This document shows, in pieces, positions 4,866 through 64,000 of a DNA stretch of 64,000 nucleotides. The notes beneath the pieces were generated by a model. The model worked only from the letters and a program-made list of their open reading frames with translations. It ran no database searches and was not told where the DNA came from. A program made the translations under genes and the position numbers. The DNA comes from Macrostomum lignano. Lineage: Eukaryota. The stretch spans positions 6,948-70,947 of the forward strand of contig NIVC01002301.1 of assembly GCA_002269645.1 (NCBI GenBank). Direction: 5' to 3'. Each line of letters begins with the position of its first letter. The first letter of the stretch is position 1.

Positions 4866-16389
<11,524 letters not shown>

Positions 16390-46500: not shown

Positions 46501-48890
46501 ATCTATTCGATTGATCAGGTGAAAACCGCGCCGGACTTCTGGCAGTACCTGAACAACACGGTCGTCCCCGCACTGTACCCCATGGCGTGCTACAACGGCA
46601 AGGCCTGCGGCATGCTGGCCAGCAATCTGGTTGGCGACTTTGCCGACTATCTGGTTCGGCAGCCGCGGCTTCGCCAGCTGCGCCTGAAGCCGGAAGCGGC
46701 GTGCCGTGTTGCTGGAGTATTCGCCGACTCCGTGCCCCCGTGCATCAAGGATTACGAACTCGTTTACGATGACGAGCGCGCCTACCTGCCAGGCTGGCTG
46801 CTTCGAAACGGATCAGGTAGATGCTGCTCAAGTCCATTAGGACACCCGACAATTTTTAGTGCTCTTTAAAGTGTAATTCTGCGAAACGAGAAAGTGTGGT
46901 GGTACGAGTCTACCAAGCTGTGGCAGTAAAAATTAAAAAAAATGTGGCAGAAAATTGGCCAGAACTGGGACAGAGAGTGTACATGCCTGACGACTAGAAT
47001 GTCAGGGCCGCTATACACTGTGTGAGCGTGGATAAGTGCGTGTCTGCGTACAGTATTGGCGCTTGCATGTGCTGTCGTCGGCGGTGGTTGTTGGACGATG
47101 TCGCAGAAGACAACCTTCCTGCAGTTTTTATTATTATTAATATTGGCATACGTATCTTCTACCTAAATTTCCTAGATTAAAGCAGAAATTTTGAAAAGCC
47201 TCGCGTATTCTCTTTCTTTCTCAGCCGGGCCGGCCTACTCAGAGTGGAGCTACACAAGCGCCCTGGACTCTCTGGGCGTGCCCTTGGCAGGCCTGCTCGC
47301 CACCTACTCAGGCGGTGGATACTCAGCTTACCTTGGCGACTCTCGTTCGAGTGCCAGCGGCGCCATCAAAAACCTGTCCTCGCTGCACTGGCTGGACCGG
47401 CTGAGCCGCGGCGTCGTCCTGGAGCTGCTGCTGTACAACCCGGCCAGCAACCTGTACACCTACGCCAGCCTGCTGTTCGAAGCCTACAGGGGCGGCAGCT
47501 TCGTGGCCAATCCGAGCATCCGCACCATCCGGCTGGACCGCTACAGCGGACCGGAGGCGCTGCTGTACGCTCTGCTGGACCTGGCCAGCCTGCTGCTGGT
47601 CATCGCCTTCATCGTCCGGGAGGCTCGGGCTCTGTGGAGGAAGCGGTGGGCCTATTTCCAGGTAATTTGGAAGCTGTTGTACAGGTATGGAATACAGTTT
47701 TCGGATCTGGGATGGTTCCAGGTAGCTTGCTTGTAGATGTATGACATTGGATAGTGTATAGGATGGAATAGAGTAGATGGGGATGGGATAGAGTAGATGG
47801 GGATGAGGATAGAGTAGATGGGGATGGGATAGAGTAGATGGTGATGAGGATAGAGTAGATGGGGATGGGATAGAGTAGATGGTGATGAGGATAGAGTAGA
47901 TGGGGATAGGATAAAGTAAATGGGGATGGGATAAAGTAAATGGGGATGGGATAAAGTAAATGGGAAGGAGGATAGGATAGATGGGGATGGGATAGAGTAG
48001 ATGGGGATGGGATAGATTTGTGTTGAGTCTAAAATAAATATCGCTTTGGTGACGGTCCATACACGTACCTCGAAAACTTAACTAAAATGTTCCAAATTAA
48101 CAATGCCTTTCACAAAAATGACACCAGGACCAGTTCAAGTGCCTAGACATCTGCCTGCTGCTGTTCTGCACAGCCGAGGTGGTTCTCTACCTGGTGAAGA
48201 TTGCCGTGCAGCAGGCTTTGGCCAGCTTCATGCAGGCCAACCCGGACAAGTTTATCGACTTCCAGTGGCTGATCGTGTACGATGAGGTACGGAGTTTGGC
48301 CTGAGCTACCTGAGTTTATAGAGATATGAGAGCATCTACTTGAGTGTGTAGACATATGAGAGTATCTACTTGAGTTTGTAGACATAGAACATCTACTTGA
48401 GTTTGTAGACATATGAGAGCATCTACTTGAGTTTGTAGACATATGAGAGCATCTACTTGAGTTTATAGACATATGAGAACATCTACTTGAGTTTGTAGAC
48501 ATATGAGAGCATCTACTTGAGTTTATAGACATATGAGAGCATCTACTTGAGTTCGTAGACATATGAGAGCATCTACCTGAGTTTATGGAGATAGGTGTAT
48601 CTACCTGAGATTACTGCCAACTCCGAACCCGCAGATCAACCAGGTGTTCATCGGCATCATTGTGTTCCTCTTCACCATTCGGTTCCTTCGCCTGCTCAAC
48701 TTCAACCGTCGAGGAGTTCTGCTGCTAGAGGTGCTGAAAACCGCGACTAAGCCGCTGTTTACTTTCGGCCTGATGGCCGGCCTTCTGTTTGTAGCGTTCG
48801 TGCTGGCCGGCCACCTGCTGTTCGCCTGCTCGATTCGGGAGTTTCGAAGCTTCACCGCGGCTGCGGAGGCGCTGAGCATCCTGGCTACTA
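31580..48890 (+). CDS. Polycystin-1 (PKD1)-like receptor, multi-exon, 3' end beyond the Polinton insertion
   Basis: Signal peptide exon 31580-31652 (MALEQLLQFLLLVLVACG); WSC-like Cys exons; PKD repeats (DFGDG motifs, large exon ~36123-38863); REJ (VTPSQGVSVLDKFQIEC...DSDEPLTY); S/T-rich stalk ~40520-40690; GPS HCYSRHL|TSFMANFYVPP (HLT at 43534-43542); TM1; PLAT (LRIWHDNSGSDPCWYL, 44431-44762); HLWLSVVTRPARSRFTRVQR; TOP domain (YSGGGY, WLDRLSR, YNPASNLY); channel helices to 48890. Not every internal exon boundary was resolved. Confidence 0.93.
31898..33215. repeat. Two intronic minisatellites (~41 bp at 31898-32325; ~32-36 bp at 32705-33215)
   Basis: Units ggctatagattagcaatccattctattccttcatccgtgat and gagatgggattcgaatagaggagtctggagat. 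Confidence 0.9.
34601..34959. mobile_element. MITE-like element with ~110-bp imperfect TIRs in a PKD1-like intron
   Basis: caaagggcctgtcaacttaagctcataaagtggagcccgagta...gtgacaccaggaagctggattt is mirrored by aaatccagcttcctggtgtcac...tactcgggctccacattatgagtttaagttgacagacaggccctttg. Confidence 0.7.
39330..39597 (+). mobile_element. tRNA-derived CORE-type SINE, copy 3 (internal deletion)
   Basis: Same head, CORE start and 3' body as 2991-3295, with part of the core deleted. Confidence 0.8.
42645..43085. repeat. ~23-bp minisatellite
   Basis: Unit tttaggagagaacacagctggtg and a variant. Confidence 0.93.
47755..48600. repeat. Intronic minisatellites (~21 bp at 47755-48015; ~30 bp at 48320-48600)
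   Basis: Units ggatagagtagatggggatg and gagcatctacttgagtttgtagacatatga. Confidence 0.9.
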
Positions 48891-49106
48891 GTGAGGCTCA
48901 CTGGCAGATGGAGCTTGAGGGTGGGGCTACTAGTGAGGCTCACTGGCAGATGGGGCTTAAGGGGGGGGGCTACTAGTGAGGCTCACTGGCAGATGGGGCT
49001 CAGGGGGGGGGGCTACTAGTGAGGCTCACTGGCAGATGGGGCTCAGGGGGGGGGGCTACTAGTGAGGCTCACTGGCAGATGGGGCTCAGGGGGGGCTACT
49101 AGTGAG
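48884..49106 (+). repeat. ~42-bp minisatellite that repeats the PKD1-like exon end and splice donor
   Basis: Unit gctacta|gtgaggctcactggcagatggggctcaggggggg, ~5 copies; the Polinton begins inside the last unit. Confidence 0.85.
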
Positions 49107-49625
49107 AGTAGTAGGGCGAATTATGATACTGCCGCACTAGCACTGGCGAGATAGGCGGCAATGCAAATGTATAGGGAAAAATACACTGCGGAGATATGAG
49201 CCCTATCTCTGTGCATTGGGGACGGCTAAGCACTGCAGAGATATGAGCTCTATCTCTGTGCATTGGGGACGGCTAAGCACTGCAGAGATATGAGCTCTAT
49301 CTCTGTGCATTGGGGACGGCTAAGCACTGCAGAGATATGAGCTCTATCTCTGTGCATTGGGGACGGCTAAGCACTGCAGAGATATGAGCTCTATCTCTGT
49401 GCATTGGGGACGGCTAAGCACTGCAGAGATATGAGCTCTATCTCTGCTTAACACTGGAGTGATAGGAGAAGAGGCGGCCTATCTCTTTACACTGGAGATG
49501 GTTAACACTGCAGAGATAGGAGGAGAGGCGGCCTATCTCTTTACACTGGAGATGGTTAACACTGCAGAGATAGGAGGAGAGGCGGCCTATCTCTTTGCAT
49601 TGGGGGTGGTTAACACTGCAGAGAT
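49107..49625. repeat. Polinton terminal region with 47-bp and ~53-bp hairpin-forming tandem repeats (mirrored at ~63465-64000)
   Basis: 47-mer gcactgcagagatatgagctctatctctgtgcattggggacggctaa (~5.5 copies), then cactgcagagataggaggagaggcggcctatctct...ggttaa units. Confidence 0.9.
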
Positions 49626-49668
49626 AAGATGTTAATCTATGTAATTGGAAATAATGTTTGCGAAAGAG

Positions 49669-49728
49669 CCAATCACAGAGCCCGGAGTGGGATGAGTGGT
49701 TTGGGGTGGTTCGGTCGAGGGTATATAA
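49669..49728 (+). promoter_or_regulatory. CCAAT box plus TATA box upstream of the first Polinton gene (mirrored at ~63362-63422)
   Basis: CCAAT 49669-49673; TATATAA 49722-49728, ~105 bp before the ATG at 49834. Confidence 0.65.
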
Positions 49729-49833
49729 GCCCCGAAATTGACAAGAAAGAATTCTCAATTTTTCAAATCCAAAATTTCATCCGAACTTTTCCTCAGCTTT
49801 TAACTTTTGTGAGTTTTCAATTGCGAAAGGAAA

Positions 49834-50607
49834 ATGGACATCTGTGAAGGCTATAAGGCACAAGTCCAGGAGTTTGAAGGACAAAAATTTATCGCTATTC
49901 GCAAGTTTTACCGACACGGCAGCACGGCAAGTCTGAAGCCAGGCGTCCCAGGATTCAACCTGAATGTTCACCAATGGAAGAAATTGAAGGAGGTGAAACG
50001 CTCACTTGTGATTTCTGCACGCAACAACGAGCCCAAGGTCGTGAAACTCGGCTTCGATAAGTTTGTGGAAGTCAAAGGCGGCATCATTTGGCTCAAACGG
50101 CTGCCGGAAGATTGCTGCGAGGAGTTTTTGAGACGAAACGCCGTACCACTGACTCCGCCGCTGTGGCAGAAGCTCTGGAAAATCGCCTCCTGGATCGACG
50201 GTCAGCTGGTGGCTCCCTTGAGGAACTCAATGCAGTACGAGCTGGAGTCTGATGAGGAAGAGGAGGAAGAGGACAAGAAGCTCAAGTTGGAGGCTGACCA
50301 GGACACGAAGCCCATAATGGAGACTGATGAGGGCGGAGAGCATGCTGATGACGAGGACGTTAGCTCGCCCACAAGGCCGCGCATTGTGACTGAGCCTATC
50401 ACATCCACACCGATACCTTTGGTTGATTCTGATGCTGGACTGCTTCCGCAGCGGGACACCAACCTTGAGGAAGATCCGGTGTGGTATCAGTTCAGGGCGC
50501 ATGCAGCGGCTTCGACGGTGAGCAGCAGCAGCAGGAAGCGAAAGCTGCCATTTCAACTTCGTCGGCAGGACGCGATGAGGCTGCCCAATGTTCGCTTTGA
50601 TAACTGA
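49834..50607 (+). CDS. Polinton protein with tandem PC4/Sub1-like ssDNA-binding domains and an acidic/disordered tail
   Basis: VQEFEGQKFIAIRKFYRHGSTASLKPGVPGFNLNVHQWKKLKE matches the PC4 pattern VRDFKGKVLIDIREYW...[20 protein letters not shown]. A second weaker repeat VKLGFDKFVEV...VPLTPPLWQKL follows. Confidence 0.75.
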   Translation: MDICEGYKAQVQEFEGQKFIAIRKFYRHGSTASLKPGVPGFNLNVHQWKKLKEVKRSLVISARNNEPKVVKLGFDKFVEVKGGIIWLKRLPEDCCEEFLRRNAVPLTPPLWQKLWKIASWIDGQLVAPLRNSMQYELESDEEEEEEDKKLKLEADQDTKPIMETDEGGEHADDEDVSSPTRPRIVTEPITSTPIPLVDSDAGLLPQRDTNLEEDPVWYQFRAHAAASTVSSSSRKRKLPFQLRRQDAMRLPNVRFDN

Positions 50608-50933
50608 ACAGCTAGAATGCTTTGAATGCATTGGACTAACTAAATTACTTTTAGCTTGCACATGATTATCCAGCCTATATCTGACGGCACTATGCTGTTT
50701 TTTATCTCTGCTATTTCTGAAATGCTGGTGTGCGAGTGTTTTAGTGTTCGTTTTTATGGATTGTTTGCTTTCGGAAAATACACCGACTGTTACGATGTTA
50801 GAGGTTTCAATCTGACAGTAATAAATTAATTTGCCACTCGTTTCTCTATCATTTAATTGGAATATAAATTTCTACTTAAGAAAAAATACTGTACAGCTAG
50901 AGCAGGTGGATAGGCACGTATCTTGATAAACCC

Positions 50934-52004
50934 ATGATGGAGAAAATTTATTTGAAACCTGAGCAACCGGCTAGTTTTTCTTGTGCCTCAAAGTTGCTGC
51001 ATGAAGTGAGGCAAAGAGGTGATCGAATATCTGCAAAGAGCATTGAGCAGTGGCTCAGCGAGCAGCAAGTGCACACTCTGCACAAGCCAGCTAGGAGGCG
51101 ATATCCAAGGGCCCCAATCATAGTGCGCGCAATCGATGATCAGTGGGAACTTGACTTAGTGGAAATGATTCCATTCGCAAAGCATAATAAAGGCTACAAA
51201 TATATTCTCACATGCATTGACGTGCTCTCAAAATGTGCTTGGGCCAAGGCACTGAAAAATAAATCTGCTGCAGAAGTGAAGTCAGCATTCGAGAGCATAC
51301 TGAGAAGTTCAAAGCGCCAGCCACGCACAGTTCGCACAGATCAGGGGAAGGAATTTATCAACTCCACTTTCCGTCAATACTGCATTGACAGAGGGATTCT
51401 GGCTTTCCCAACTAACAGCGAGCAGAAGGCAGCTGTCATTGAGCGATGGAATCGAACTCTGAAAAGTAGAATGTGGCGCTACTTCACCTACAAGAGCACA
51501 CTGCACTGGCTTGATGTGCTGCCTAAGCTGGTAAAATCCTACAACAATACCTACCACAGAAGCATCAAAATGGCACCCACTAGTGTCTGCAAAGAGAATG
51601 AATCTGAAGTGTGGATGAACCTGTACGATGGAAAAGCAGTCGAGACTCTAGAAAAATTAAAGGAGCCTAAGTTCGCTGAAAACCAGTCAGTGAGAATTTC
51701 CAATGCTCCACGGATATTCAAAAAGGGATACAAAGCGAGCTGGAGTGAGGAAGTGTACACCGTGGTGAGCAGAGCCCCAAAACATTATCCATACATGTAC
51801 AAGATTAAAGACATGCGGGGGCAAGAGATTCGAGGACTCTTCCATGAGCACGAGCTGCAGGCTGTCCCGGACTCACAGCGGCTGTATGTGATTGAGAAGA
51901 TCCTGAAAACGGAGAAGCGGAAGGGAAAAATTCGCTATCTGGTGAAATGGGCGGGCTACGACTCGACTGGCTGGGTGGATGAAAAAGACTTAAGAAAGGT
52001 TTAG
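50934..52004 (+). CDS. Retroviral-like (rve) integrase with C-terminal chromodomain
   Basis: WELDLVEM (D), RTDQGKEF (D), AVIERWNRTLK (E); chromodomain YVIEKIL...YLVKWAGYDSTGW. Confidence 0.96.
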   Translation: MMEKIYLKPEQPASFSCASKLLHEVRQRGDRISAKSIEQWLSEQQVHTLHKPARRRYPRAPIIVRAIDDQWELDLVEMIPFAKHNKGYKYILTCIDVLSKCAWAKALKNKSAAEVKSAFESILRSSKRQPRTVRTDQGKEFINSTFRQYCIDRGILAFPTNSEQKAAVIERWNRTLKSRMWRYFTYKSTLHWLDVLPKLVKSYNNTYHRSIKMAPTSVCKENESEVWMNLYDGKAVETLEKLKEPKFAENQSVRISNAPRIFKKGYKASWSEEVYTVVSRAPKHYPYMYKIKDMRGQEIRGLFHEHELQAVPDSQRLYVIEKILKTEKRKGKIRYLVKWAGYDSTGWVDEKDLRKV

Positions 52005-52041
52005 CTTTGGCACATCCCTCATCTTGAAGTTTATCATTATA

Positions 52042-52851
52042 ATGCGAACTATTTTGATTAACAGTGAGCATGCTGAAGGTACTCCTTGTGACTTTAATTT
52101 TTACCTGCCTTCACCTATTTACTTGGATCGAAATGTGGACTATGAGGCAGGTCTGGCTGAAATCCATCTGCCTGCTGCATGGTTCAATGTTGACGAGCCT
52201 TACTGCTTCACTGTCTCAGATGGAAGAGAGCATGAGGCCCTGGTTCTTCAACCCGGACGCTTTGCTAGAGTGGAGGAGCTGGTGGAGCGCCTGAATGAGC
52301 TGCTGGCCAACTCTGATTCGCTGTTCTTTGATGCAATGAGTGACAGGGAGTCTGAGATGGAGGCTGATGAGTCCGGCCTGATGGGGCGTAGTGGCAACAG
52401 GGAATTCGGTATGAAGTTCGAAATCCACAACTCACGAACTGTGGTGCACAACAACACTGCGAGAGCAGAGCTGTTTCTTCCATCTAGTAAAATTCTGCAT
52501 TGGCTGGGATTTGGAAACCAGGCTGTGAAAATCCAGCCAGGGAGCCGCGTGTCCGAGCATTGCACTGGCTGCCCGCGCACCAGCTTAATCAATGTGCACT
52601 GCAGTATCGTTGAGTCAACTAATTGCAACTGGAGCTCCTTGTTGAGAACAGTTGGAATGAAAGCCGGCATTGAATGGGGCAACTATCAAACAAAAATATT
52701 TAAGAAAACAATATTCTTCCCGATTCAACGAATCAGTCTTCTTCACAGCATTCGAGTTCAGCTCCGTGACATCTATGGTTGCCCACTGATTGCACAGACT
52801 CACAGCCCTGTTCTGCTTACAGTTCAAATTCAGGAGAAACGCATTCAATGA
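52042..52851 (+). CDS. Putative minor capsid (penton-like) protein
   Basis: N-terminal INSE...DFNFYLPSPIYLD...YEAGLAEI pattern and C-terminal beta-rich IRVQLRDIYG motif typical of the Polinton mCP; located in the capsid gene block. Confidence 0.7.
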   Translation: MRTILINSEHAEGTPCDFNFYLPSPIYLDRNVDYEAGLAEIHLPAAWFNVDEPYCFTVSDGREHEALVLQPGRFARVEELVERLNELLANSDSLFFDAMSDRESEMEADESGLMGRSGNREFGMKFEIHNSRTVVHNNTARAELFLPSSKILHWLGFGNQAVKIQPGSRVSEHCTGCPRTSLINVHCSIVESTNCNWSSLLRTVGMKAGIEWGNYQTKIFKKTIFFPIQRISLLHSIRVQLRDIYGCPLIAQTHSPVLLTVQIQEKRIQ

Positions 52852-53225
52852 ACTACCAGCAGCTAATCCAGCAATATTCGGGGGTGAGGACAGGACACGA
52901 AAAGCCTGCACTCTATGGCTGTGGGAGCTTCCCAGGGATCATGACATACCAGCCTCCGCCAGCGGCTATATCATCATCATCAGCCTCGACGCTTAGCAAC
53001 GTCAGGCGCAAAAGAAATACTGAAGCAAGTCCGAAACGATTGAAGAAAAAGAAGGGCACCCGAAAGGCAACTGGTGGAAATCGCAGTAAGAGGTCGAGCA
53101 AGGCTAGTGGGAAAAAGCTTAAGAATAGGAAGACGAAAGCAAAGAAGAATAGAGCAGGCGGAGGAAAGCGAAAGCAAAAAGTCAGCAAGAAAACTGTGAA
53201 ACGCGTGCTCGACTCTCTGTCATAG
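52848..53225 (+). CDS. Small Lys/Arg-rich protein, putative DNA-condensing core protein
   Basis: 125 aa; ATGA overlap with the mCP stop; highly basic C-terminal half; LYGC|G matches the adenain consensus (M/I/L)xGx|G. Confidence 0.55.
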   Translation: MNYQQLIQQYSGVRTGHEKPALYGCGSFPGIMTYQPPPAAISSSSASTLSNVRRKRNTEASPKRLKKKKGTRKATGGNRSKRSSKASGKKLKNRKTKAKKNRAGGGKRKQKVSKKTVKRVLDSLS

Positions 53226-53227
53226 AC

Positions 53228-54511
53228 ATGGCTTACGGATTCAATCCCAGACTTGATTTATTTAAGACGCCCGTTCTACAAACCTGCATTGAAAAAGCTA
53301 CTTATGTTGATATTCACCCAGTTAATTCCATTGTTGCAAACTCTCCCATTGAATTTGACTGCCACCAATCTGCCGATGAATACACAGATCTGCTGAATTC
53401 TTTTCTTTATATTCGCTGCCGCCTTGTGAGACTGGATGGGGGTTTGCTGAGGGAGGATGTTCGAGATGGAGATGGCATCATCACCGAGCGCAGAGACAGT
53501 GACGTGCACCCAGAAAATTTTGTTCTGTCTACAGCCTTCTCAGATGTAATTGTGAGCATTAACCAGCGAGTGGTGTCTGGTGGAGACCAGCTCTATCCCT
53601 ACCATGCGTACTTCAAAGCACTAATGAGCTCATCCGATGCCCAGCAACTAAAACTTTACCCTGCTGGCTTCCTGGAGCCGAACTCGGCAGCTGAAGAGCA
53701 CACGGAGAGCCACAGGGAATCCCAATGGATGGAGTATGCGGGGCCGCTCTTCAGCGATGTTTTCCAGTGCCCAGTGTTTCTGCTAAGCAATCTGCACCTG
53801 CACATCAAACTGGTCCCCAGCGATGGGGCCTTTGCCATCAGAACCCCGAATGCAAACAACGCGGCATACCGAATGGAAATCTCTCACAGCATTCTGCATC
53901 TTCGCCGAGTCAAAGTGATGCCCCACATCAGCCTGGCCCATGAGCAGGGGCTGACAAACCAAAATGCACTGTATCCCATCGAGCGAACTGAAATGCAGAA
54001 CTTCATCCTACCCCAGGGTATTCAGTCAAAAAACATTGAAGGATTCACTCATGGAAAATTGCCGAAGTTTATCATGCTGGCCTTCGTGAGCCACCGAGCA
54101 TTCAACGGTCATCATCACGCGAGCCCGTTACAGTTCCAGAGCTTCAACCTTAGCCGATTGGCTCTAAAGAAAGGTGGGGAAACCGTGTGCCACGGCGCCT
54201 TCACACCTGAAAACAATTCCTTTGTAAGAGAATACTTGCACTACCTGAAAAGCTGTCAATCTGCAAGCCACACAAACTCGGTTCCGTGGATCCCCTACCA
54301 GCTCTTCTCCAACAACAGCACGGTGTTTGCATTCGATCTCACACCCGAGGGAGCGGCTCTGTGGTACGGACAGAAGAAGGGCAACCTGCGGCTGGAGATT
54401 CGCTTCCAACAGGCTCTGAATGAAGCGGTGTCCCTGATTGCTATGTGCCTGTATGACTCGCTGATTGAGGTCACCAAGCACCGAGAGCTTTTGCTGGACT
54501 ATTCCTCTTAA
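53228..54511 (+). CDS. Major capsid protein (double jelly-roll, Polinton PY-type)
   Basis: 427 aa; LDLFKTPVLQTCIE...YVDIHP...PIEF...EYTDL..SFLY pattern, LPKFIMLAFV, FAFDLTP, GNLRLEIRF...L.EAVSLI, all characteristic of the Polinton MCP. Confidence 0.9.
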   Translation: MAYGFNPRLDLFKTPVLQTCIEKATYVDIHPVNSIVANSPIEFDCHQSADEYTDLLNSFLYIRCRLVRLDGGLLREDVRDGDGIITERRDSDVHPENFVLSTAFSDVIVSINQRVVSGGDQLYPYHAYFKALMSSSDAQQLKLYPAGFLEPNSAAEEHTESHRESQWMEYAGPLFSDVFQCPVFLLSNLHLHIKLVPSDGAFAIRTPNANNAAYRMEISHSILHLRRVKVMPHISLAHEQGLTNQNALYPIERTEMQNFILPQGIQSKNIEGFTHGKLPKFIMLAFVSHRAFNGHHHASPLQFQSFNLSRLALKKGGETVCHGAFTPENNSFVREYLHYLKSCQSASHTNSVPWIPYQLFSNNSTVFAFDLTPEGAALWYGQKKGNLRLEIRFQQALNEAVSLIAMCLYDSLIEVTKHRELLLDYSS

Positions 54512-54516
54512 TTGAC

Positions 54517-55029
54517 ATGGATGCAATTCAACTACTTAATCTCGCCAGAAAATTTTTGCCTTACCAAAAATTTCTCATAGTTACTTTACATTTGCGCTAT
54601 AAAAATTCTCTGCCCTTGAATGTAAAAAGAAAATTTAGATCATCAATTTCCTTTGAAAACAAGTTTGTTTTTGTCCTACTTCAGCACAATGGCTCATTTG
54701 GTCACTGGGTGGTGTGCTATGTTGGGCAAGGAAATCGCATTGAGTTGTTCAACTCCCTCGGCTGGGAACCTGAAATTTTATCTTTGGTTTATAATTTGTT
54801 TCGAGAGATTAAAACAACTGGCTTTTGGCTCCGAAGCAATATAAACAGATTTCAATGTGCTAACTCTAATAAATGCGGAGTGTTTTGCATCTATTTTGTT
54901 TATCAAAAGTTTCTGTTCAATCGGTCATTTGAGGGGATTTTGAAGCATTTGCATGCTAATGAAAAAAATCATTTGAATGATAGAATCTTACAGAGGTTTG
55001 AAGCCAACTTAAGAAAAAGATGTCCGTGA
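54517..55029 (+). CDS. Adenain/Ulp1-like cysteine maturation protease
   Basis: GHWV (His), FNSLG (Asn at the usual Asp position), Q...CGVFC (oxyanion Gln and catalytic Cys). Confidence 0.88.
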   Translation: MDAIQLLNLARKFLPYQKFLIVTLHLRYKNSLPLNVKRKFRSSISFENKFVFVLLQHNGSFGHWVVCYVGQGNRIELFNSLGWEPEILSLVYNLFREIKTTGFWLRSNINRFQCANSNKCGVFCIYFVYQKFLFNRSFEGILKHLHANEKNHLNDRILQRFEANLRKRCP

Positions 55030-55502
55030 TTTCTAATATTTATGCATTAAACATGGGAGAAAAGCAAGTTTGCTACGATATCCGCCTCAGGCAGGGAAGC
55101 TGCATGATTGTCTGCGGGCCCACCAATGCAGGAAAAACAACCTTTGTCAAACACCTGATCCAGTACAGAGACGTCATGTTTGATGTGAAGCCTGGCAGAG
55201 TTCTGTGGTACTATGGGATCTCACAGGCAGGCCATGCAGAACTGAGCAGCCTAGGTGTGCAGCTGCGCCAGGGATTTCCCACCAACATCGAGGCAGCACT
55301 TAGGCCCAATGACCTGGTTGTTTTCGATGACTTAATAGAGGAAACTTCAAACTCTGCTTCAATGCGAAATTTTTTCACAGGAATCGCACATCACTTGCCG
55401 TGCTTTTTGGTGATGCTGACTCAGAATATATTTTTCAAGGGAAAAGAGTCGCGAACAATGAGCTTGAATGTAATAGTTTTAATTCGAACACAAATTGTTT
55501 GA
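55020..55502 (+). pseudogene. Packaging ATPase, left-arm copy truncated at the arm/spacer junction (55474)
   Basis: Identical in outline to 57398-58078 up to ...RTMSLNV, then runs into non-homologous spacer sequence. Confidence 0.88.
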
Positions 55503-55849
55503 TGAGGCAGCAGTTGAGCCGGCACTCTCCGATGCAGCATAGCCACGAAGCGACGGGCAGCCCTTTTGGCGTCTGCGTGGGTCTTGGCACCGCAGATGCT
55601 CAGTTGCCCAGTAGGGTAGAGTAGGAGAGTCACTCTGGGAATCCGCATCCGCTTGATGAGCACCCGGGGCCAGACGGGCCGGTAGATCACATGAGCCATG
55701 CTGAGAGCCAGTTCCCGTAGAGGCAGCTGAGCGCCCCTGCCACCATCCAGTCTCAGATCTACTCCGCCAACCAGATTGGTCACTCTTAGGGCTGTAGCTG
55801 GTGGGCTCATTTCGATCGTCAACTTCTTCACCAAATCTGCTTCTGCCAA
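55421..55849 (-). CDS. TATA-binding-protein (TBP)-like domain protein (first ATG at 55810), C-terminus broken at the junction
   Basis: LRVTNLVGGVDL...LPLRELALSMAHVIYRPVWPRVLIKRMRIPRVTLLLYPTGQLSICGAKTHADAKRAARRFVAML aligns by eye with TBP repeat 1 ([75 protein letters not shown]). Confidence 0.8.
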   Translation of the reverse strand: MAEADLVKKLTIEMSPPATALRVTNLVGGVDLRLDGGRGAQLPLRELALSMAHVIYRPVWPRVLIKRMRIPRVTLLLYPTGQLSICGAKTHADAKRAARRFVAMLHRRVPAQLLPHQTICVRIKTITFKLIVRDSFPLKNIF

Positions 55850-55859
55850 CTTTACTGCT

Positions 55860-56330
55860 CGTGTGCCACGGACACTGCTCGCTTCTTAAGTTGATGCAGA
55901 ACTTTGGCTTAAGCCAACTGTAGTGCAGCAACGAATTTCTCACTGCACAGCCAGTATCTGAATCTTCAGTCGAGGGTGCTCCCAAATCTTCTAGGTTATA
56001 AACCTGTCTTCCAAGCAGCTCAGTCAGAAAAATCGACTTCCTTTCCCCATTTGACCAGATCGGACCACTGGCAATGCTCAGAATGTCTTCCGCCAGTTCC
56101 ATGTACGGACGGGTTCCATCATTCCACTTAAACTGGTGCAGACTCTTAGATAGCTGTCTGTAGTAAACTCGCATGTCAGGTGAGACTCTCTCCCATGGAT
56201 ACGGAGGTGCGTACACATGGTGAGCAATGTGGTAGCTCCCCGCTCTGATTTGAACAACTGCCAACTCCTTCACAACAAATTTTTTGCTTGTGCTGTTGCA
56301 CGGGAATCCTTGGAAGTCAATGTAGTTCAT
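55860..56330 (-). CDS. DEDD-like exonuclease-fold protein of Polintons (ORF continues without a stop to 55479 in a frame overlapping the TBP-like ORF)
   Basis: YIDFQGF...KFVVKELAVV...APPYPW...HQFKWNDG...NGERKSIFL...NLEDLGAP...CAVRN resembles the Maverick exonuclease-like ORF as recalled; DxQ replaces DxE. Confidence 0.6.
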
Positions 56331-56359
56331 GATGCAGCTTTCCTTCGAAAATTTCGGAG

Positions 56360-57052
56360 TCAGTCCACCTTCTTATATACTTTTCTGGCAGGCAATTTCA
56401 GCCAGGCTGTGTTGCTCCCGTACCCCTTGACTAGACTCTCCTGTTCTTTCTCCAGTTCACCCCCTCTGCTGGTTGCCATTTTCTTCTTAACTGATTTACC
56501 AACAGCGGAAAGCGGAACATTAAGCTTTTTCTGCTGCAGAAAATCGATGAACTCGTTCCACCCAACTGGTTCACGCTCACATGGCGAATCCCTCACTGTG
56601 TGCTGAATCAAGTCCAGTATGTTTGAGGAAGGGATTGACGTGCCTGCGATTTCCACCTCCCCGTTTTCACAAACTCGAATCAGCTCTGGATTGGTGGACA
56701 GGATCGTCCACAGACTGCGAGCCCTGGTTTTGAATTTCTGTGGCACCGACTTGCTGATCTTCTCTTCCCAGGTGCTTATCTGGGGTGTCTCTGTTTTCAT
56801 CAACTTGGCTTCAGTATTGCGTGCTCCTTCTTTTCCAGCGTGCTTGCGCTTGGCCAGCAAACTTTGCATTGCACTTTGGTACATGGCGGTTTTCACATCT
56901 TCTGGACAATCCTCGGCATACAAGATGTCATCGCATTTCTTCTGAGCCTGCTTCAAGTCAGCTTCAGTGGTAGTCTCATTTGGCTTCAAATTCTGCATCA
57001 ACATCTCATACTCTGCTTTAGGAATCAGAACCATTTCTGAAAATTTGTTCAT
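56360..57052 (-). CDS. Conserved Polinton hypothetical protein (230 aa)
   Basis: MVLIP...; ENGEVEIAGTSIPSSNILDLI...PVGWNEF...LNVPLSAVG resembles a recurrent Maverick ORF; collinear with neighbouring genes. Confidence 0.65.
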   Translation of the reverse strand: MNKFSEMVLIPKAEYEMLMQNLKPNETTTEADLKQAQKKCDDILYAEDCPEDVKTAMYQSAMQSLLAKRKHAGKEGARNTEAKLMKTETPQISTWEEKISKSVPQKFKTRARSLWTILSTNPELIRVCENGEVEIAGTSIPSSNILDLIQHTVRDSPCEREPVGWNEFIDFLQQKKLNVPLSAVGKSVKKKMATSRGGELEKEQESLVKGYGSNTAWLKLPARKVYKKVD

Positions 57053-57356
57053 TTTGCTTCTTCTTCTTTACCAGCTTAAGCAGAATCGGGAGTATTTTGA
57101 TGAAGCCAGCCTTCAACAAGTCTGTCTTTCTTCTTTTGTGAGTAATTTTTCGAATTATCTCTTTTGACTTTGCAAGAACAGCTTTTTCATCGAGCGAAAA
57201 CGATAGATTGTTTTGTAAGAGATTATGGCAGGCCTCGACAAGAAAATAACGCACTTCTTTTGGACAATTTTTTATCAACAGCCGCTTGAAGCGCACGGTA
57301 TATTTAGGTGACGCAAGAACCGCAAAAAGACTTGCATATGAATCAAGCACTTCCAT
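57018..57356 (-). CDS. Conserved small basic Polinton hypothetical protein (112 aa)
   Basis: LLIKNCPKEVRYFLVEACHNLLQNNLSFS..EKAVLAKSKEIIRKI pattern recurrent in Mavericks; directly downstream of the ATPase. Confidence 0.6.
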   Translation of the reverse strand: MEVLDSYASLFAVLASPKYTVRFKRLLIKNCPKEVRYFLVEACHNLLQNNLSFSLDEKAVLAKSKEIIRKITHKRRKTDLLKAGFIKILPILLKLVKKKKQNEQIFRNGSDS

Positions 57357-57397
57357 TGCGATGAAAACAATAGCTGATAAAAACAAGCTTCACTTTC

Positions 57398-58078
57398 TTA
57401 AGCAAATACAAGATGGGGTCGCTGGTTGGGCAGAATTCTGGCCCGCACTCGCAGCTCATCGGGAGTTGATGGGTGAAAGTCTAGGAACAGGTAGGCTCCC
57501 CTGCCCTGCGCGGTCACGTGCTTGAACACTGACAGCAGAAAGCCGGGCTTCTCTGTAAAGCACTGCCTGCCCAGTGCTGCAATCTGCAGCTGGTCTCGGG
57601 GGTTTTTCAAGATAGCTAAGTACATTACATTCAAGCTCATTGTTCGCGACTCTTTTCCCTTGAAAAATATATTCTGAGTCAGCATCACCAAAAAGCACGG
57701 CAAGTGATGTGCGATTCCTGTGAAAAAATTTCGCATTGAAGCAGAGTTTGAAGTTTCCTCTATTAAGTCATCGAAAACAACCAGGTCATTGGGCCTAAGT
57801 GCTGCCTCGATGTTGGTGGGAAATCCCTGGCGCAGCTGCACACCTAGGCTGTTCAGTTCTGCATGGCCTGCCTGTGAGATCCCATAGTACCACAGAACTC
57901 TGCCAGGCTTCACATCAAACATGACGTCTCTGTACTGGATCAGGTGTTCGACAAAGGTTGTTTTTCCTGCATTGGTGGGCCCGCAGACAATCATGCAGCT
58001 TCCCTGCCTGAGGCGGATATCGTAGCAAACTTGCTTTTCTCCCATGTTTAATGCATAAATATTAGAAATCACGGACAT
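57398..58078 (-). CDS. FtsK/A32-like genome packaging ATPase (intact copy)
   Basis: Walker A GPTNAGKT, Walker B LVVFDDL, TQNIF, SRTMSLN, KNPRD. Confidence 0.93.
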   Translation of the reverse strand: MSVISNIYALNMGEKQVCYDIRLRQGSCMIVCGPTNAGKTTFVEHLIQYRDVMFDVKPGRVLWYYGISQAGHAELNSLGVQLRQGFPTNIEAALRPNDLVVFDDLIEETSNSASMRNFFTGIAHHLPCFLVMLTQNIFFKGKESRTMSLNVMYLAILKNPRDQLQIAALGRQCFTEKPGFLLSVFKHVTAQGRGAYLFLDFHPSTPDELRVRARILPNQRPHLVFA

Positions 58079-58580
58079 CTTTTTCTTAAGTTGGCTTCAA
58101 ACCTCTGTAAGATTCTATCATTCAAATGATTTTTCTCATTAGCATGCAAATGCTTCAAAATCCCTCAAATGACCGATTGAACAGAAACTTTTGATAAGCA
58201 AAATAGATGCAAAACATTCCGCATTTATTAGAGTTAGCACATTGAACTCTGTTTATATTGCTTCGGAGCCAAAAGCCAGTTGTTTTAATCTCTCGAAACA
58301 AATTATAAACCAAAGATAAAATTTCAGGTTCCCAGCCGAGGGAGTTGAACAACTCAATGCGATTTCCTTGCCCAACATAGCACACCACCCAGTGACCAAA
58401 TGAGCCATTGTGCTGAAGTAGGACAAAAACAAACTTGTTTTCAAAGGAAATTGATGATCTAAATTTTCTTTTTACATTCAAGGGCAGAGAATTTTTATAG
58501 CGCAAATGTAAAGTAACTATGAGAAATTTTTGGTAAGGCAAAAATTTTCTGGCGAGATTAAGTAGTTGAATTGCATCCAT
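58069..58580 (-). CDS. Protease, right-arm copy (1-nt deletion near 58165)
   Basis: Reverse complement of 54517-55029 with gaggga for gagggga. Confidence 0.85.
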
Positions 58581-58585
58581 GTCAA

Positions 58586-59868
58586 TTAAGAGGAATAGTC
58601 CAGCAAAAGCTCTCGGTGCTTGGTGACCTCAATCAGCGAGTCATACAGGCACATAGCAATCAGGGACACCGCTTCATTCAGAGCCTGTTGGAAGCGAATC
58701 TCCAGCCGCAGGTTGCCCTCCTTCTGTCCGTACCACAGAGCCGCTCCCTCGGGTGTGAGATCGAATGCAAACACCGTGCTGTTGTTGGAGAAGAGCTGGT
58801 AGGGGATCCACGGAACCGAGTTTGTGTGGCTTGCAGATTGACAGCTTTTCAGGTAGTGCAAGTATTCTCTTACAAAGGAATTGTTTTCAGGTGTGAAGGC
58901 GCCGTGGCACACGGTTTCCCCACCTTTCTTTAGAGCCAATCGGCTAAGGTTGAAGCTCTGGAACTGTAACGGGCTCGCGTGATGATGACCGTTGAATGCT
59001 CGGTGGCTCACGAAGGCCAGCATGATGAACTTCGGCAATTTTCCATGAGTGAATCCTTCAATGTTTTTTGACTGAATACCCTGGGGTAGGATGAAGTTCT
59101 GCATTTCAGTTCGCTCGATGGGATACAGTGCATTTTGGTTTGTCAGCCCCTGCTCATGGGCCAGGCTGATGTGGGGCATCACTTTGACTCGGCGAAGATG
59201 CAGAATGCTGTGAGAGATTTCCATTCGGTATGCCGCGTTGTTTGCATTCGGGGTTCTGATGGCAAAGGCCCCATCGCTGGGACCAGTTTGATGTGCAGGT
59301 GCAGATTGCTTAGCAGAAACACTGGGCACTGGAAAACATCGCTGAAGAGCGGCCCCGCATACTCCATCCATTGGGATTCCCTGTGGCTCTCCGTGTGCTC
59401 TTCAGCTGCCGAGTTCGGCTCCAGGAAGCCAGCAGGGTAAAGTTTTAGTTGCTGGGCATCGGATGAGCTCATTAGTGCTTTGAAGTACGCATGGTAGGGA
59501 TAGAGCTGGTCTCCACCAGACACCACTCGCTGGTTAATGCTCACAATTACATCTGAGAAGGCTGTAGACAGAACAAAATTTTCTGGGTGCACGTCACTGT
59601 CTCTGCGCTCGGTGATGATGCCATCTCCATCTCGAACATCCTCCCTCAGCAAACCCCCATCCAGTCTCACAAGGCGGCAGCGAATATAAAGAAAAGAATT
59701 AAGCAGATCTGTATATTCATCGGCAGATTGGTGGCAGTCAAATTCAATGGGAGAGTTTGCAACAATGGAATTAACTGGGTGAATATCAACATAAGTAGCT
59801 TTTTCAATGCAGGTTTGTAGAACGGGCGTCTTAAATAAATCAAGTCTGGGATTGAATCCGTAAGCCAT
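58586..59868 (-). CDS. Major capsid protein, right-arm copy (1-nt deletion near 59281)
   Basis: Reverse complement of 53228-54511; split into two ORFs by loss of one base in a C/G run. Confidence 0.87.
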
Positions 59869-59870
59869 GT

Positions 59871-60247
59871 CTATGACAGAGAGTCGAGCACGCGTTTCAC
59901 AGTTTTCTTGCTGACTTTTTGCTTTCGCTTTCCTCCGCCTGCTCTATTCTTCTTTGCTTTCGTCTTCCTATTCTTAAGCTTTTTCCCACTAGCCTTGCTC
60001 GACCTCTTACTGCGATTTCCACCAGTTGCCTTTCGGGTGCCCTTCTTTTTCTTCAATCGTTTCGGACTTGCTTCAGTATTTCTTTTGCGCCTGACGTTGC
60101 TAAGCGTCGAGGCTGATGATGATGATATAGCCGCTGGCGGAGGCTGGTATGTCATGATCCCTGGGAAGCTCCCACAGCCATAGAGTGCAGGCTTTTCGTG
60201 TCCTGTCCTCACCCCGAATATTGCTGGATTAGCTGCTGGTAGTTCAT
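59871..60247 (-). CDS. Basic core-like protein, right-arm copy (1-nt deletion near 60213)
   Basis: Reverse complement of 52848-53225. Confidence 0.55.
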
Positions 60248-61052
60248 TGAATGCGTTTCTCCTGAATTTGAACTGTAAGCAGAACAGGGCTGTGAGTCTG
60301 TGCAATCAGTGGGCAACCATAGATGTCCCGCAGCTGAACTCGAATGCTGTGAAGAAGACTGATTCGTTGAATCGGGAAGAATATTGTTTTCTTAAATATT
60401 TTTGTTTGATAGTTGCCCCATTCAATGCCAGCTTTCATTCCAACTGTTCTCAACAAGGAGCTCCAGTTGCAATTAGTTGACTCAACGATACTGCAGTGCA
60501 CATTGATTAAGCTGGTGCGCGGGCAGCCAATGCAATGCTCGGATACGCGGCTCCCTGGCTGGATTTTCACAGCCTGGTTTCCAAATCCCAGCCAATGCAG
60601 AATTTTACTAGATGGAAGAAACAGCTCTGCTCTCGCAGTGTTGTTGTGCACCACAGTTCGTGAGTTGCGGATTTCGAACTTCATACCAAATTCCCTGTTG
60701 CCACTACGCCCATCAGGCCGGACTCATCAGCCTCCATCTCAGACTCCCTGTCACTCATTGCATCAAAGAACAGCGAATCAGAGTTGGCCAGCAGCTCATT
60801 CAGGCGCTCCACCAGCTCCTCCACTCTAGCAAAGCGTCCGGGTTGAAGAACCAGGGCCTCATGCTCTCTTCCATCTGAGACAGTGAAGCAGTAAGGCTCG
60901 TCAACATTGAACCATGCAGCAGGCAGATGGATTTCAGCCAGACCTGCCTCATAGTCCACATTTCGATCCAAGTAAATAGGTGAAGGCAGGTAAAAATTAA
61001 AGTCACTAGGAGTACCTTCAGCATGCTCACTGTTAATCAAAATAGTTCGCAT
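60244..61052 (-). CDS. Minor capsid protein, right-arm copy (1-nt deletion near 60710)
   Basis: Reverse complement of 52042-52851. Confidence 0.7.
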
Positions 61053-61089
61053 TATAATCATAAACTACATGATGAGGGCTGTGCCAAAG

Positions 61090-62160
61090 CTAAACCTTTC
61101 TTAAGTCTTTTTCATCCACCCAGCCAGTCGAGTCGTAGCCCGCCCATTTCACCAGATAGCGAATTTTTCCCTTCCGCTTCTCCGTTTTCAGGATCTTCTC
61201 AATCACATACAGCCGCTGTGAGTCCGGGACAGCCTGCAGCTCGTGCTCATGGAAGAGTCCTCGAATCTCTTGCCCCCGCATGTCTTTAATCTTGTACATG
61301 TAGGGATAATGTTTTGGGGCTCTGCTCACCACGGTGTACACTTCCTCACTCCAGCTCGCTTTGTATCCCTTTTTGAATATCCGTGGAGCATTGGAAATTC
61401 TCACTGACTGGTTTTCAGCGAACTTAGGCTTCTTTAATTTTTCTAGAGTCTCGACTGCTTTTCCATCGTACAGGTTCATCCACACTTCAGATTCATTCTC
61501 TTTGCAGACACTAGTGGGTGCCATTTTGATGCTTCTGTGGTAGGTATTGTTGTAGGATTTTACCAGCTTAGGCAGCACATCAAGCCAGTGCAGTGTGCTC
61601 TTGTAGGTGAAGTAGCGCCACATTCTACTTTTCAGAGTTCGATTCCATCGCTCAATGACAGCTGCCTTCTGCTCGCTGTTAGTTGGGAAAGCCAGAATCC
61701 CTCTGTCAATGCAGTATTGACGGAAAGTGGAGTTGATAAATTCCTTCCCCTGATCTGTGCGAACTGTGCGTGGCTGGCGCTTTGAACTTCTCAGTATGCT
61801 CTCGAATGCTGACTTCACTTCTGCAGCAGATTTATTTTTCAGTGCCTTGGCCCAAGCACATTTTGAGAGCACGTCAATGCATGTGAGAATATATTTGTAG
61901 CCTTTATTATGCTTTGCGAATGGAATCATTTCCACTAAGTCAAGTTCCCACTGATCATCGATTGCGCGCACTATGATTGGGGCCCTTGGATATCGCCTCC
62001 TAGCTGGCTTGTGCAGAGTGTGCACTGGCTGCTCGCTGAGCCACTGCTCAATGCTCTTTGCAGATATTCGATCACCTCTTTGCCTCACTTCATGCAGCAA
62101 CTTTGAGGCACAAGAAAAACTAGCCGGTTGCTCAGGTTTCAAATAAATTTTCTCCATCAT
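61090..62160 (-). CDS. Integrase plus chromodomain, right-arm copy (intact)
   Basis: 356 aa; differs from the left copy at EQP/EQQ and KLKK/KLKE; DDE intact. Confidence 0.96.
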   Translation of the reverse strand: MMEKIYLKPEQPASFSCASKLLHEVRQRGDRISAKSIEQWLSEQPVHTLHKPARRRYPRAPIIVRAIDDQWELDLVEMIPFAKHNKGYKYILTCIDVLSKCAWAKALKNKSAAEVKSAFESILRSSKRQPRTVRTDQGKEFINSTFRQYCIDRGILAFPTNSEQKAAVIERWNRTLKSRMWRYFTYKSTLHWLDVLPKLVKSYNNTYHRSIKMAPTSVCKENESEVWMNLYDGKAVETLEKLKKPKFAENQSVRISNAPRIFKKGYKASWSEEVYTVVSRAPKHYPYMYKIKDMRGQEIRGLFHEHELQAVPDSQRLYVIEKILKTEKRKGKIRYLVKWAGYDSTGWVDEKDLRKV

Positions 62161-62480
62161 GGGTTTATCAAGATACGTGCCTATCCACCTGCTCTAGCTG
62201 TACAGTATTTTTTCTTAAGTAGAAATTTATATTCCAATTAAATGATAGAGAAACGAGTGGCAAATTAATTTATTACTGTCAGATTGAAACCTCTAACATC
62301 GTAACAGTCGGTGTATTTTCCGAAAGCAAACAATCCATAAAAACGAACACTAAAACACTCGCACACCAGCATTTCAGAAATAGCAGAGATAAAAAACAGC
62401 ATAGTGCCGTCAGGCTGGATAATCATGTGCAAGCTAAAAGTAATTTAGTTAGTCCAATGCATTCAAAGCATTCTAGCTGT

Positions 62481-63256
62481 TCAGTTATCAAAGCGAACAT
62501 TGGGCTGCAGCCTCATCGCGTCCTGCCGACGAAGTTGAAATGGCAGCTTTCGCTTCCTGCTGCTGCTGCTCACCGTCGAAGCCGCTGCATGCGCCCTGAA
62601 CTGATACCACACCGGATCTTCCTCAAGGTTGGTGTCCCGCTGCGGAAGCAGTCCAGCATCAGAATCAACCGAAGGTATCGGTGTGGATGTGATTGGCTCA
62701 GTCACAATGCGCGGCCTTGTGGGCGAGCTAACGTCCTCGTCATCAGCATGATCTCCGCCCTCATCAGTCTCCATTATGGGCTTCGTGTCCTGGTCAGCCT
62801 CCAACTTGAGCTTCTTGTCCTCTTCCTCCTCTTCCTCATCAGACTCCAGCTCGTACTGCATTGTGTTCCTCAAGGGAGCCACCAGCTGACCGTCGATCCA
62901 GGAGGCGATTTTCCAGAGCTTCTGCCACAGCGGCGGAGTCAGTGGTACGGCGTTTCGTCTCAAAAACTCCTCGCAGCAATCTTCCGGCAGCCGTTTGAGC
63001 CAAATGATGCCGCCTTTGACTTCCACAAACTTATCGAAGCCGAGTTTCACGACCTTGGGCTCGTTGTTGCGTGCAGAAATCACAAGTGAGCGTTTCACCT
63101 CCTTCAATTTCTTCCATTGGTGAACATTCAGGTTGAATCCTGGGACGCCTGGCTTCAGACTTGCCGTGCTGCCGTGTCGGTAAAATTGCGAATAGCGATA
63201 AATTTTTGTCCTTCAAACTCCTGGACTTGTGCCTTATAGCCTTCACAGATGTCCAT
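62481..63256 (-). CDS. Tandem PC4-like protein, right-arm copy (1-nt deletion near 63185)
   Basis: Reverse complement of 49834-50607 with cgcaatttt for cgcaagtttt and a 3-nt in-frame insertion (RLQPNV). Confidence 0.72.
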
Positions 63257-64000
63257 TTTCCTTTCGCAATTGAAAACTCACAAAAGTTAAAAGCTGAGGA
63301 AAATTTCGGATGAAATTTTGGATTTGAAAAATTGAGAATTCTTTCTTGTCAATTTCGGGGCTTATATACCCTCGACCGAACCACCCCAAACCACCCATCC
63401 CACTCCGGGCTCTGTGATTGGCTCTTTCGCAAACATTATTTCCAATTACATAGATTAACATCTTATCTCTGCAGTGTTAACCACCCCAATGCAAAGAGAT
63501 AGGCCGCCTCTCCTCCTATCTCTGCAGTGTTAACCACCCCAATGCAAAGAGATAGGCCGCCTCTCCTCCTATCTCTGCAGTGTTAACCACCCCAATGCAA
63601 AGAGATAGGCCGCCTCTCCTCCTATCTCTGCAGTGTTAACCATCTCCAGTGTAAAGAAATAGGCCGCCTCTTCTCCTATCACTCCTGTGTTAAGCAGAGA
63701 TAGAGCTCATATCTCTGCAGTGCTTAGCCGTCCCCAATGCACAGAGATAGAGCTCATATCTCTGCAGTGCTTAGCCGTCCCCAATGCACAGAGATAGAGC
63801 TCATATCTCTGCAGTGCTTAGCCGTCCCCAATGCACAGAGATAGAGCTCATATCTCTGCAGTGCTTAGCCGTCCCCATGCACAGAGATAGAGCTCATATC
63901 TCTGCAGTGCTTAGCCGTCCCCAATGCACAGAGATAGGGCTCATATCTCCGCAGTGTATTTTTCCCTATACATTGCATTGCCGCCTATCTCGCCAGTGCT

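Follow-up and report, generated by a model that had tools for sequence, protein, structure and literature searches.

A variant TATA-binding protein predicted from Polintons of the flatworm Macrostomum lignano and its possible pairing with an element-specific promoter box

The right-hand end of the window (the whole stretch of 64,000 nucleotides analysed here) is occupied by an inverted derivative of a Polinton, consisting of two near-identical arms in opposite orientation around a unique spacer (Table 1). Over 14.5 kb contig C3189 is a 99.7% match to the window element, whose right flank it provides; because the satellite continues there in the same direction and the 6-bp duplication recurs, the inverted form was integrated as such, and an assembly artefact as the origin of the palindrome was rejected on these two grounds. 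The arms may derive from two family members, since they differ by about 1%. The derivative lacks a polymerase. Intact family copies of about 16-17 kb carry pPolB, integrase, double jelly-roll capsid, a putative protease, a putative ATPase and the PC4-like gene, the protein-primed polymerase being a 1152-aa ORF (PF03175 E=2e-12). Inverted ends are present, and 6-bp target-site duplications were found at the window insertion and at copies C114 and C296 and were not seen at C84. No RNA polymerase was found among the element ORFs examined. The major capsid was recognized by fold search, and its profile gave no match against PDB sequences. With an rve integrase, a double jelly-roll capsid and pPolB in family copies, the placement of a TBP-like gene inside a Polinton by a first-pass annotation is borne out, as are the PC4-like gene and the TATA box that it reported in the terminus.

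Table 1. Features of the Polinton derivative and its promoter boxes, in window positions
Feature	Position	Strand	Remark
Target-site duplication, 6-bp	49101..49106	+	Matching copy after right terminus in contig C3189
Left arm	49107..55474	+	Terminus, subterminal tandem repeats, PC4-like, integrase, putative minor capsid, 125-aa ORF, major capsid, protease, truncated ATPase
Canonical TATATAAG box	49722..49729	+	Precedes PC4-like gene
PC4-like gene, 257 aa	49834..50607	+	PF02229 E=5.4e-8
CTTAAGAA box	50875..50882	+	59 nt upstream of integrase; mirror 62212-62219, minus
rve integrase with chromodomain	50934..52004	+	PF00665 E=2e-13
CTTAAGAA box	51989..51996	+	53 nt upstream of putative minor capsid; mirror 61098-61105
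Putative minor capsid protein, 269 aa	52042..52851	+	Named from position; no Pfam match
TTTAAGAA box	52699..52706	+	149 nt upstream of 125-aa ORF; mirror 60389-60396
CTTAAGAA box	53118..53125	+	110 nt upstream of major capsid; mirror 59971-59978
Double jelly-roll major capsid, 427 aa	53228..54511	+	Fold search: PBCV-1, Sputnik and mavirus capsids, E about 1e-13
Adenovirus-type cysteine protease	54517..55029	+	PF00770 E=4e-4, 20.6 bits, just under 21.3 cut-off
CTTAAGAA box	55008..55015	+	45 nt upstream of conserved ATPase ATG; mirror 58083-58090
TBP-like ORF, truncated allele, 129 aa	55421..55810	-	ATG 55810, stop 55421; ORF listing and Pfam
5-nt microhomology at inversion junction	55470..55474		Two places in assembly: C2301, C3189
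Unique spacer, about 2.1 kb	55475..57623	-	ATPase end, 112-aa, 230-aa and 283-aa ORFs, TBP 5' part
283-aa ORF	55479..56330	-	Final ~110 codons share their DNA with TBP repeat 1, in a different frame
CTTAAGAA box	55883..55890	-	80 nt upstream of TBP ATG
Hybrid TATATAAGAA box, canonical TATA overlapping element box	56370..56379	-	47 nt upstream of 283-aa ORF
CTTAAGAA box	57395..57402	-	46 nt upstream of 112-aa ORF
P-loop packaging ATPase, A32-like	57398..58078	-	Weak Pox_A32 E=0.05-0.07; truncated left-arm copy 55020-55502
Right arm, about 99% inverted copy of left	57624..64000	-	Several genes frameshifted; continues to window end

The insertion site of the element lies within a ~44-nt satellite (48900-49106), the element's subterminal region (49184-49630) holds 47-nt and ~54-nt tandem repeats, and exons of a polycystin-1-like host gene with PKD, REJ and polycystin domains lie at 36903-46869. 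The N-terminal 170 aa of the 283-aa product resemble unnamed arthropod proteins. Its frame stays open across TBP repeat 1 (55479-55810, minus strand) in subfamilies A1, A2 and A3 and in family B, with a chance of 0.007-0.03 each under a recoding null, and TBP synonymous divergence is lower where the two overlap; dual coding or translational coupling is possible.

The TBP-like ORF of the window is a truncated allele. Its start lies at 55810 instead of 55849, to which the gene had been extended, within a minus-strand stop-to-stop frame at 55885-55421. Translation from the ATG gives a single PF00352 match at residues 9-93 (E=3e-12, 46.7 bits against a cut-off of 22.9) and matches to PDB TBPs at E about 5e-13, so the TBP-like repeat and its quoted motifs are present. 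Codons 1-114 encode repeat 1, the linker and the first strand of repeat 2; there the 5-nt microhomology joins the gene to the antisense ATPase, from which the last 15 residues come and which are therefore not TBP, in agreement with the earlier view that homology stops at the arm/spacer junction. Of the aromatic residues assigned to the two Phe positions, Tyr65 does occupy the second (yeast F116); Trp47 falls one residue ahead of the first, and it is Pro48 that aligns at F99. The two occurrences of the junction in the assembly look like one insertion represented twice. Contigs from all four public runs (three of them only guessed to be RNA) span the whole element and read on at 55470 into the second repeat, the junction appearing in none. 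The window allele is probably non-functional, and the inverted derivative would rely on intact copies in trans.

Such copies are abundant. The TBP gene has at least 152 matches in the genome (150 of 203 candidates scored), and among 30 fetched loci an identical 215-codon open frame, comprising 190 aa from the ATG with two repeats, is found in 25, the other five being a one-residue variant, the window copy, a frameshifted copy and two loci that the anchor missed. The gene is thus full-length at 26 of the 30 loci and not absent from intact family members; the suspected loss of the second repeat through rearrangement is confirmed, and the alternative of a homodimerizing half-TBP is contradicted. 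Two PF00352 repeats are present in the intact proteins of A1, A2, A3 and B (87 bits for the intact copy against the cut-off of 22.9), an AlphaFold model of the 190-aa protein from a nine-sequence alignment reached a pLDDT of 89.7, and Foldseek aligned this model to solved TBPs with TM 0.76-0.84, so that Pfam and structural comparison both return the TBP fold. The two-repeat saddle belongs to the intact copies and not to the window allele. A database protein labelled M. lignano is 99% identical to the intact TBP, which is TBP core throughout, with no herpesvirus-type N-terminal domain for binding the Pol II CTD. A functional single-repeat window product, acting as a homodimer or dominant negative, could draw on an open ORF with a whole repeat 1, and is nevertheless very improbable in our estimation, given a junction found at two assembly places (apparently one insertion) against at least 26 full-length frames in 30 loci, the disruption of the ATPase by the same junction, and the missing polymerase.

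The TBPs of A2 and A3 are 79% and 75% identical to that of A1, and family B harbors a TBP at the syntenic position that is 38% identical to family A and has 39 genome matches at E<=1e-20. Pairwise dN/dS values of the TBP among the A subfamilies are 0.20, 0.20 and 0.22, a level also seen in other genes of the element; repeat 2 shows saturation at synonymous sites and a dN of 0.23-0.45. Judged from these substitution ratios, the Polinton TBP is under purifying selection.

Identity to the host TBP is 29%, and the host genome encodes separate TBP and TRF2-like genes at three loci each. Trees built by a quick method place the Polinton-context TBPs apart from host TBP and TRF2, and forcing families A and B together with the host TBP was rejected with p-AU 0.002 in a test on 26 rows with a quick tree and long branches. 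The possibility, foreseen in the first-pass annotation, that the gene is a recently captured and decaying fragment of the host TBP gene is refuted by this identity, a dN/dS of about 0.2 and the p-AU value, and retains practically no credence.

Canonical eukaryotic TBP carries four intercalating phenylalanines and two central asparagines, and this set is incomplete in the element proteins, in which F190, F207 and N69 are kept and F116>Y, F99>P and N159>T have occurred (yeast residue numbers, host position + 23). Also kept are V71, T112, L114 and E188, together with E186 in families A and B; changes common to A and B further include A100>R, V122>S, T124>C and Q158>K. Position 159 is Thr or Ser in every aligned Polinton-context TBP, and the position of P191 is taken by Ser or Asn in A and B. 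One study (PMC1636458) assigns recognition of the box's 5' half to the C-terminal TBP repeat, suggests that P191 bars any base but T from position 1 of the box, and reports that the three substitutions I194F, V203T and L205V change TBP specificity. In the element box the first letter is usually C, and P191 is replaced in A and B. One lysine is constant across A and B but was left uncounted, because a 2-residue deletion makes its alignment ambiguous (V203 or K201). The best conserved part across clades is the acidic stirrup of repeat 2 (E-P-E-x-F), whose second Glu forms one of two invariant columns; acidic stirrup residues of TBP face TFIIB. As far as alignment tells, the DNA-facing surface of the element TBP is altered.

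Upstream regions share the motif YWTAAGAA (box 1), which occurs on the sense and antisense strands 8/0 times in A1, 8/1 in A2, 7/0 in A3, 6/0 in B and 6/0 in the metagenome contig L153. Shuffled sequences yielded means of 0.5-1.0 and reached the observed counts in 0/200 cases, and in a both-strand test in 3/200 shuffles for L153 and 5/100 for the whole window; these statistics are optimistic, because the box patterns were defined after inspecting the sequences. Thirteen of the 15 matches in the window lie inside the element, all 13 on the coding strand. Distances from box to listed start are mostly 41-59 nt; the A1 ATPase and the B minor capsid have their first ATG just 12 nt past the box, and for some other genes the gap is 74-149 nt. 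A later in-frame ATG exists in the genes with short distances. In family A no box precedes the protease and 230-aa genes. Upstream genes run through the box in differing reading frames, which points to a signal at the DNA level.

CTTAAGAA differs from TATAWAWR at three positions. Canonical TATATAA precedes the terminal genes, namely the PC4-like and zinc-finger-like ORFs and, in family B, the polymerase, and its place ahead of the PC4-like gene is shared by A2, A3 and family B. The TBP gene of family B is likewise preceded by a canonical TATAAAAG and not by the element box. The earlier proposal that the terminal TATA box at 49722 is the target of the element TBP is probably wrong: that box is canonical, lies ahead of the PC4-like gene and is therefore readable by host TBP, and it is the element-specific YWTAAGAA that lies before internal genes.

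Further Polinton families were collected by a genome capsid search and delimited by our own grouping of the matches. Counting A and B, eight of the nine sampled families carry a TBP-like frame, profile searches of representative copies having found divergent ones in D, E, F, G, H and I; against the Pfam TBP model F and H score above the cut-off, E, G and I just below it, and D gives no match. Profile search detected no TBP in the two copies of family C (22 kb and 20 kb, termini not found). Families C, E, F, H and I share TATAAGYA (box 2) with 4-6 sense and 0 antisense occurrences (C 4/0), and D and G share TATAAATA (box 3, 6/0 each). Boxes 1 and 2 never cross clades, and L153 also has two copies of box 3. 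Each clade pairs its own TBP type with its own sense-strand box, the D/G clade combining the most divergent TBP with a canonical box.

A metagenome scan retained 80 of 580 loci, of which one, L153, has Polinton hallmark genes; this unrelated contig encodes an ATPase, two small ORFs, TBP, integrase and capsid. Most of the other retained loci hold ordinary eukaryotic or archaeal-like TBPs, and scans of viral contigs gave no confirmed relatives. Two Mytilus-labelled proteins, P0241 and P0253, one of them annotated 'TBP', group with the L153 protein and may be Polinton genes.

Several features of the divergent families are recorded here in their own right. In families E, F, H and I the TBP frame restarts in phase 0 after a pyrimidine tract and AG in 5/5 copies (L248:1731, L235:144, L240, L241 and L251), ahead of the first TBP strand, before which E, F and H have no ATG; the tract looks like a splice acceptor. 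Two papers report that a start codon can come from the flatworm spliced leader, whose last letters are AUG (PMC9851317), and that about 30% of genes in this host are trans-spliced (PMC8629364). The very divergent TBP-like frames of G (L229:4080-4613) and D (L221:4409-4999) have no ATG before the first strand and are overlapped by an upstream ORF, so that a frameshift or splicing would be needed. In L241 (G000:C297:261439-262845, minus) the TBP-like frame runs into a deoxynucleoside kinase (PF01712 E=7e-24), and families E and I have a similar kinase-like ORF after TBP as a separate gene. The family C copy L219 contains an ORF that by its motifs we take to be dUTPase-like (G000:C4948:19266-20135), preceded by a canonical TATATAAG, and a second capsid-like gene pair further left (9476-11650).

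Building on the observed fold, selection, residue changes and boxes, we infer a sequence of steps in which an altered-specificity Polinton TBP reads YWTAAGAA and, together with host Pol II, drives a programme of late genes, a reading that we hold to be probable with some reservation. Host TBP would first read the terminal genes with canonical TATATAA, and the 283-aa/TBP unit would be bootstrapped from the hybrid TATATAAGAA or, in family B, from the canonical TATAAAAG. The element TBP would then bind the variant boxes, including in family A the one ahead of its own gene, its retained acidic stirrup would contact host TFIIB, and the recruited TFIIB and RNA polymerase II would turn on the capsid, packaging and integrase genes, resulting in an early-to-late switch. 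We count in favor of this reading the TBP at the same place in family B (38%) and in L153, the strand-specific box before eight internal genes, and the finding that no TFIIB family has expanded together with the element (15 TFIIB matches in the genome). Against it we count family C, with box 2 (4/0) and no detectable TBP, which could be served by relatives in trans, and clade D/G, whose canonical box should be readable by host TBP. Moreover, the match of TBP type and box could reflect shared descent, because only three clades are involved, and without F99 the protein may bind TATA-type DNA poorly or not at all. The boxless protease and 230-aa genes of family A and the very short or long distances of some boxes also count against it. 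A predicted complex with TFIIB, for which an ill-suited archaeal protein stood in, scored 0.31 for a mark of 0.32 and weighs in neither direction.

Several of these observations can be read differently. The boxes might be served by host TBP, TRF2 or another factor, with the element TBP acting as a decoy for TFIIB, TFIIA, NC2 or Mot1 that damps host transcription or relieves repression. The conservation of the E-P-E-x-F stirrup in all clades, the loss of F99 in repeat 1, the box of family C and the canonical nature of box 3 would all fit a decoy, which we nonetheless regard as unlikely, since the DNA-face substitutions are invariant between families just 38% identical, suggesting selection for DNA contact and not for its loss, and since CTTAAGAA departs from TATAWAWR at three positions. 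Somewhat less likely still is that the TAAG core serves as an initiator at the transcription start, as the late TAAG motif of baculoviruses does, its reader being a different protein of the element (such as the PC4-like, 112-aa, 230-aa or 283-aa product), leaving TBP without box specificity. TAAG is indeed common to boxes 1 and 2, box-to-ATG distances range from 12 to 149 nt, and box 2 persists in a TBP-less family; yet box 3 has no TAAG, the distances mostly cluster at 41-59 nt with later in-frame ATGs in the short cases, and no RNA polymerase occurs among the element ORFs examined.

A slim chance is left for re-use of the TBP fold outside transcription, on single-stranded or bent DNA in protein-primed replication, integration or packaging. 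The heavily changed DNA face would suit such a role, for which there is a precedent in the Giardia TBP that lacks three phenylalanines and is reported to bind single-stranded DNA (PMC12209930); the retention of acidic residues on the TFIIB side and the TATA-like boxes ahead of genes in each clade speak against it. Returning to the late-gene reading, a wider version is conceivable and decidedly tentative: an old lineage of viral TBPs in animal Polintons, each co-evolving with a private TATA variant, would provide orthogonal late switches, with three systems (YWTAAGAA, TATAAGYA and TATAAATA) in one genome and with TBP-less or truncated elements trans-activated only by relatives that share their box.

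A bare, altered-specificity TBP with its own box would, if confirmed, be the smallest viral late-gene switch of its type, would support Polintons as viruses with an ordered cycle, and would supply natural variants of TBP/TATA specificity with named residue changes and matching boxes, open to direct testing, in a laboratory flatworm with many near-identical element copies. The first-pass annotation knew of no TBP among described metazoan Polinton genes; novelty is lower than this implied, as a figure legend on related viruses in PMC8502044 and its preprint lists 'TBP' among the genes. Within a literature search to which most subscription papers were closed we found no study of a Polinton TBP, and the Polinton literature searched contained no analysis of its TBP, promoter boxes or a late switch, nor a description of how Polintons time expression without an RNA polymerase. 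Term searches of PMC12220804, PMC11131425, PMC10120064, 10.1101/2023.08.22.554363 and 10.64898/2026.06.19.733378, and of the PMC8502044 supplement, returned no TBP.

Cellular and archaeal TBPs (PF00352) have in common with the element protein the two-repeat saddle (TM about 0.8), N69, F190, F207 and the acidic stirrup; the latter differs in the altered F99, N159, Q158, P191, V122 and T124 positions, in a 6-residue insert in repeat 1 and a shorter repeat 2 hairpin, in the lack of an N-terminal extension and in its location in a mobile element. TBP homologues of Nucleocytoviricota are likewise virus-encoded and are weaker structural matches than cellular TBPs, the BFVD matches including Heterosigma akashiwo virus 01 and an asfarvirus B263R homologue (TMq up to 0.74, 6-20% identity). 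Nucleocytoviricota with a TBP mostly bring their own RNA polymerase. The element, with pPolB counted from its family copies, shares with the Polintons, Mavericks and adintoviruses of PMC8502044 an rve integrase, a double jelly-roll capsid, terminal repeats and a 6-bp target duplication; the protease and ATPase are likely further points of agreement, at borderline or weak Pfam support. A parallel in proposed logic, a TBP-like protein and a non-canonical box that direct host Pol II to late genes, is found in beta- and gamma-herpesviruses, which likewise have no RNA polymerase of their own, use canonical TATA for early genes, and transcribe late genes from TATT promoters with viral TBP mimics (KSHV ORF24, EBV BcRF1). 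Those mimics are larger, possess a Pol II CTD-binding domain and work in a six-protein complex (PMC7498053), whereas the Polinton protein is a bare 190-aa TBP core recognizable by sequence, and the likeness is one of functional analogy only, not of family membership.
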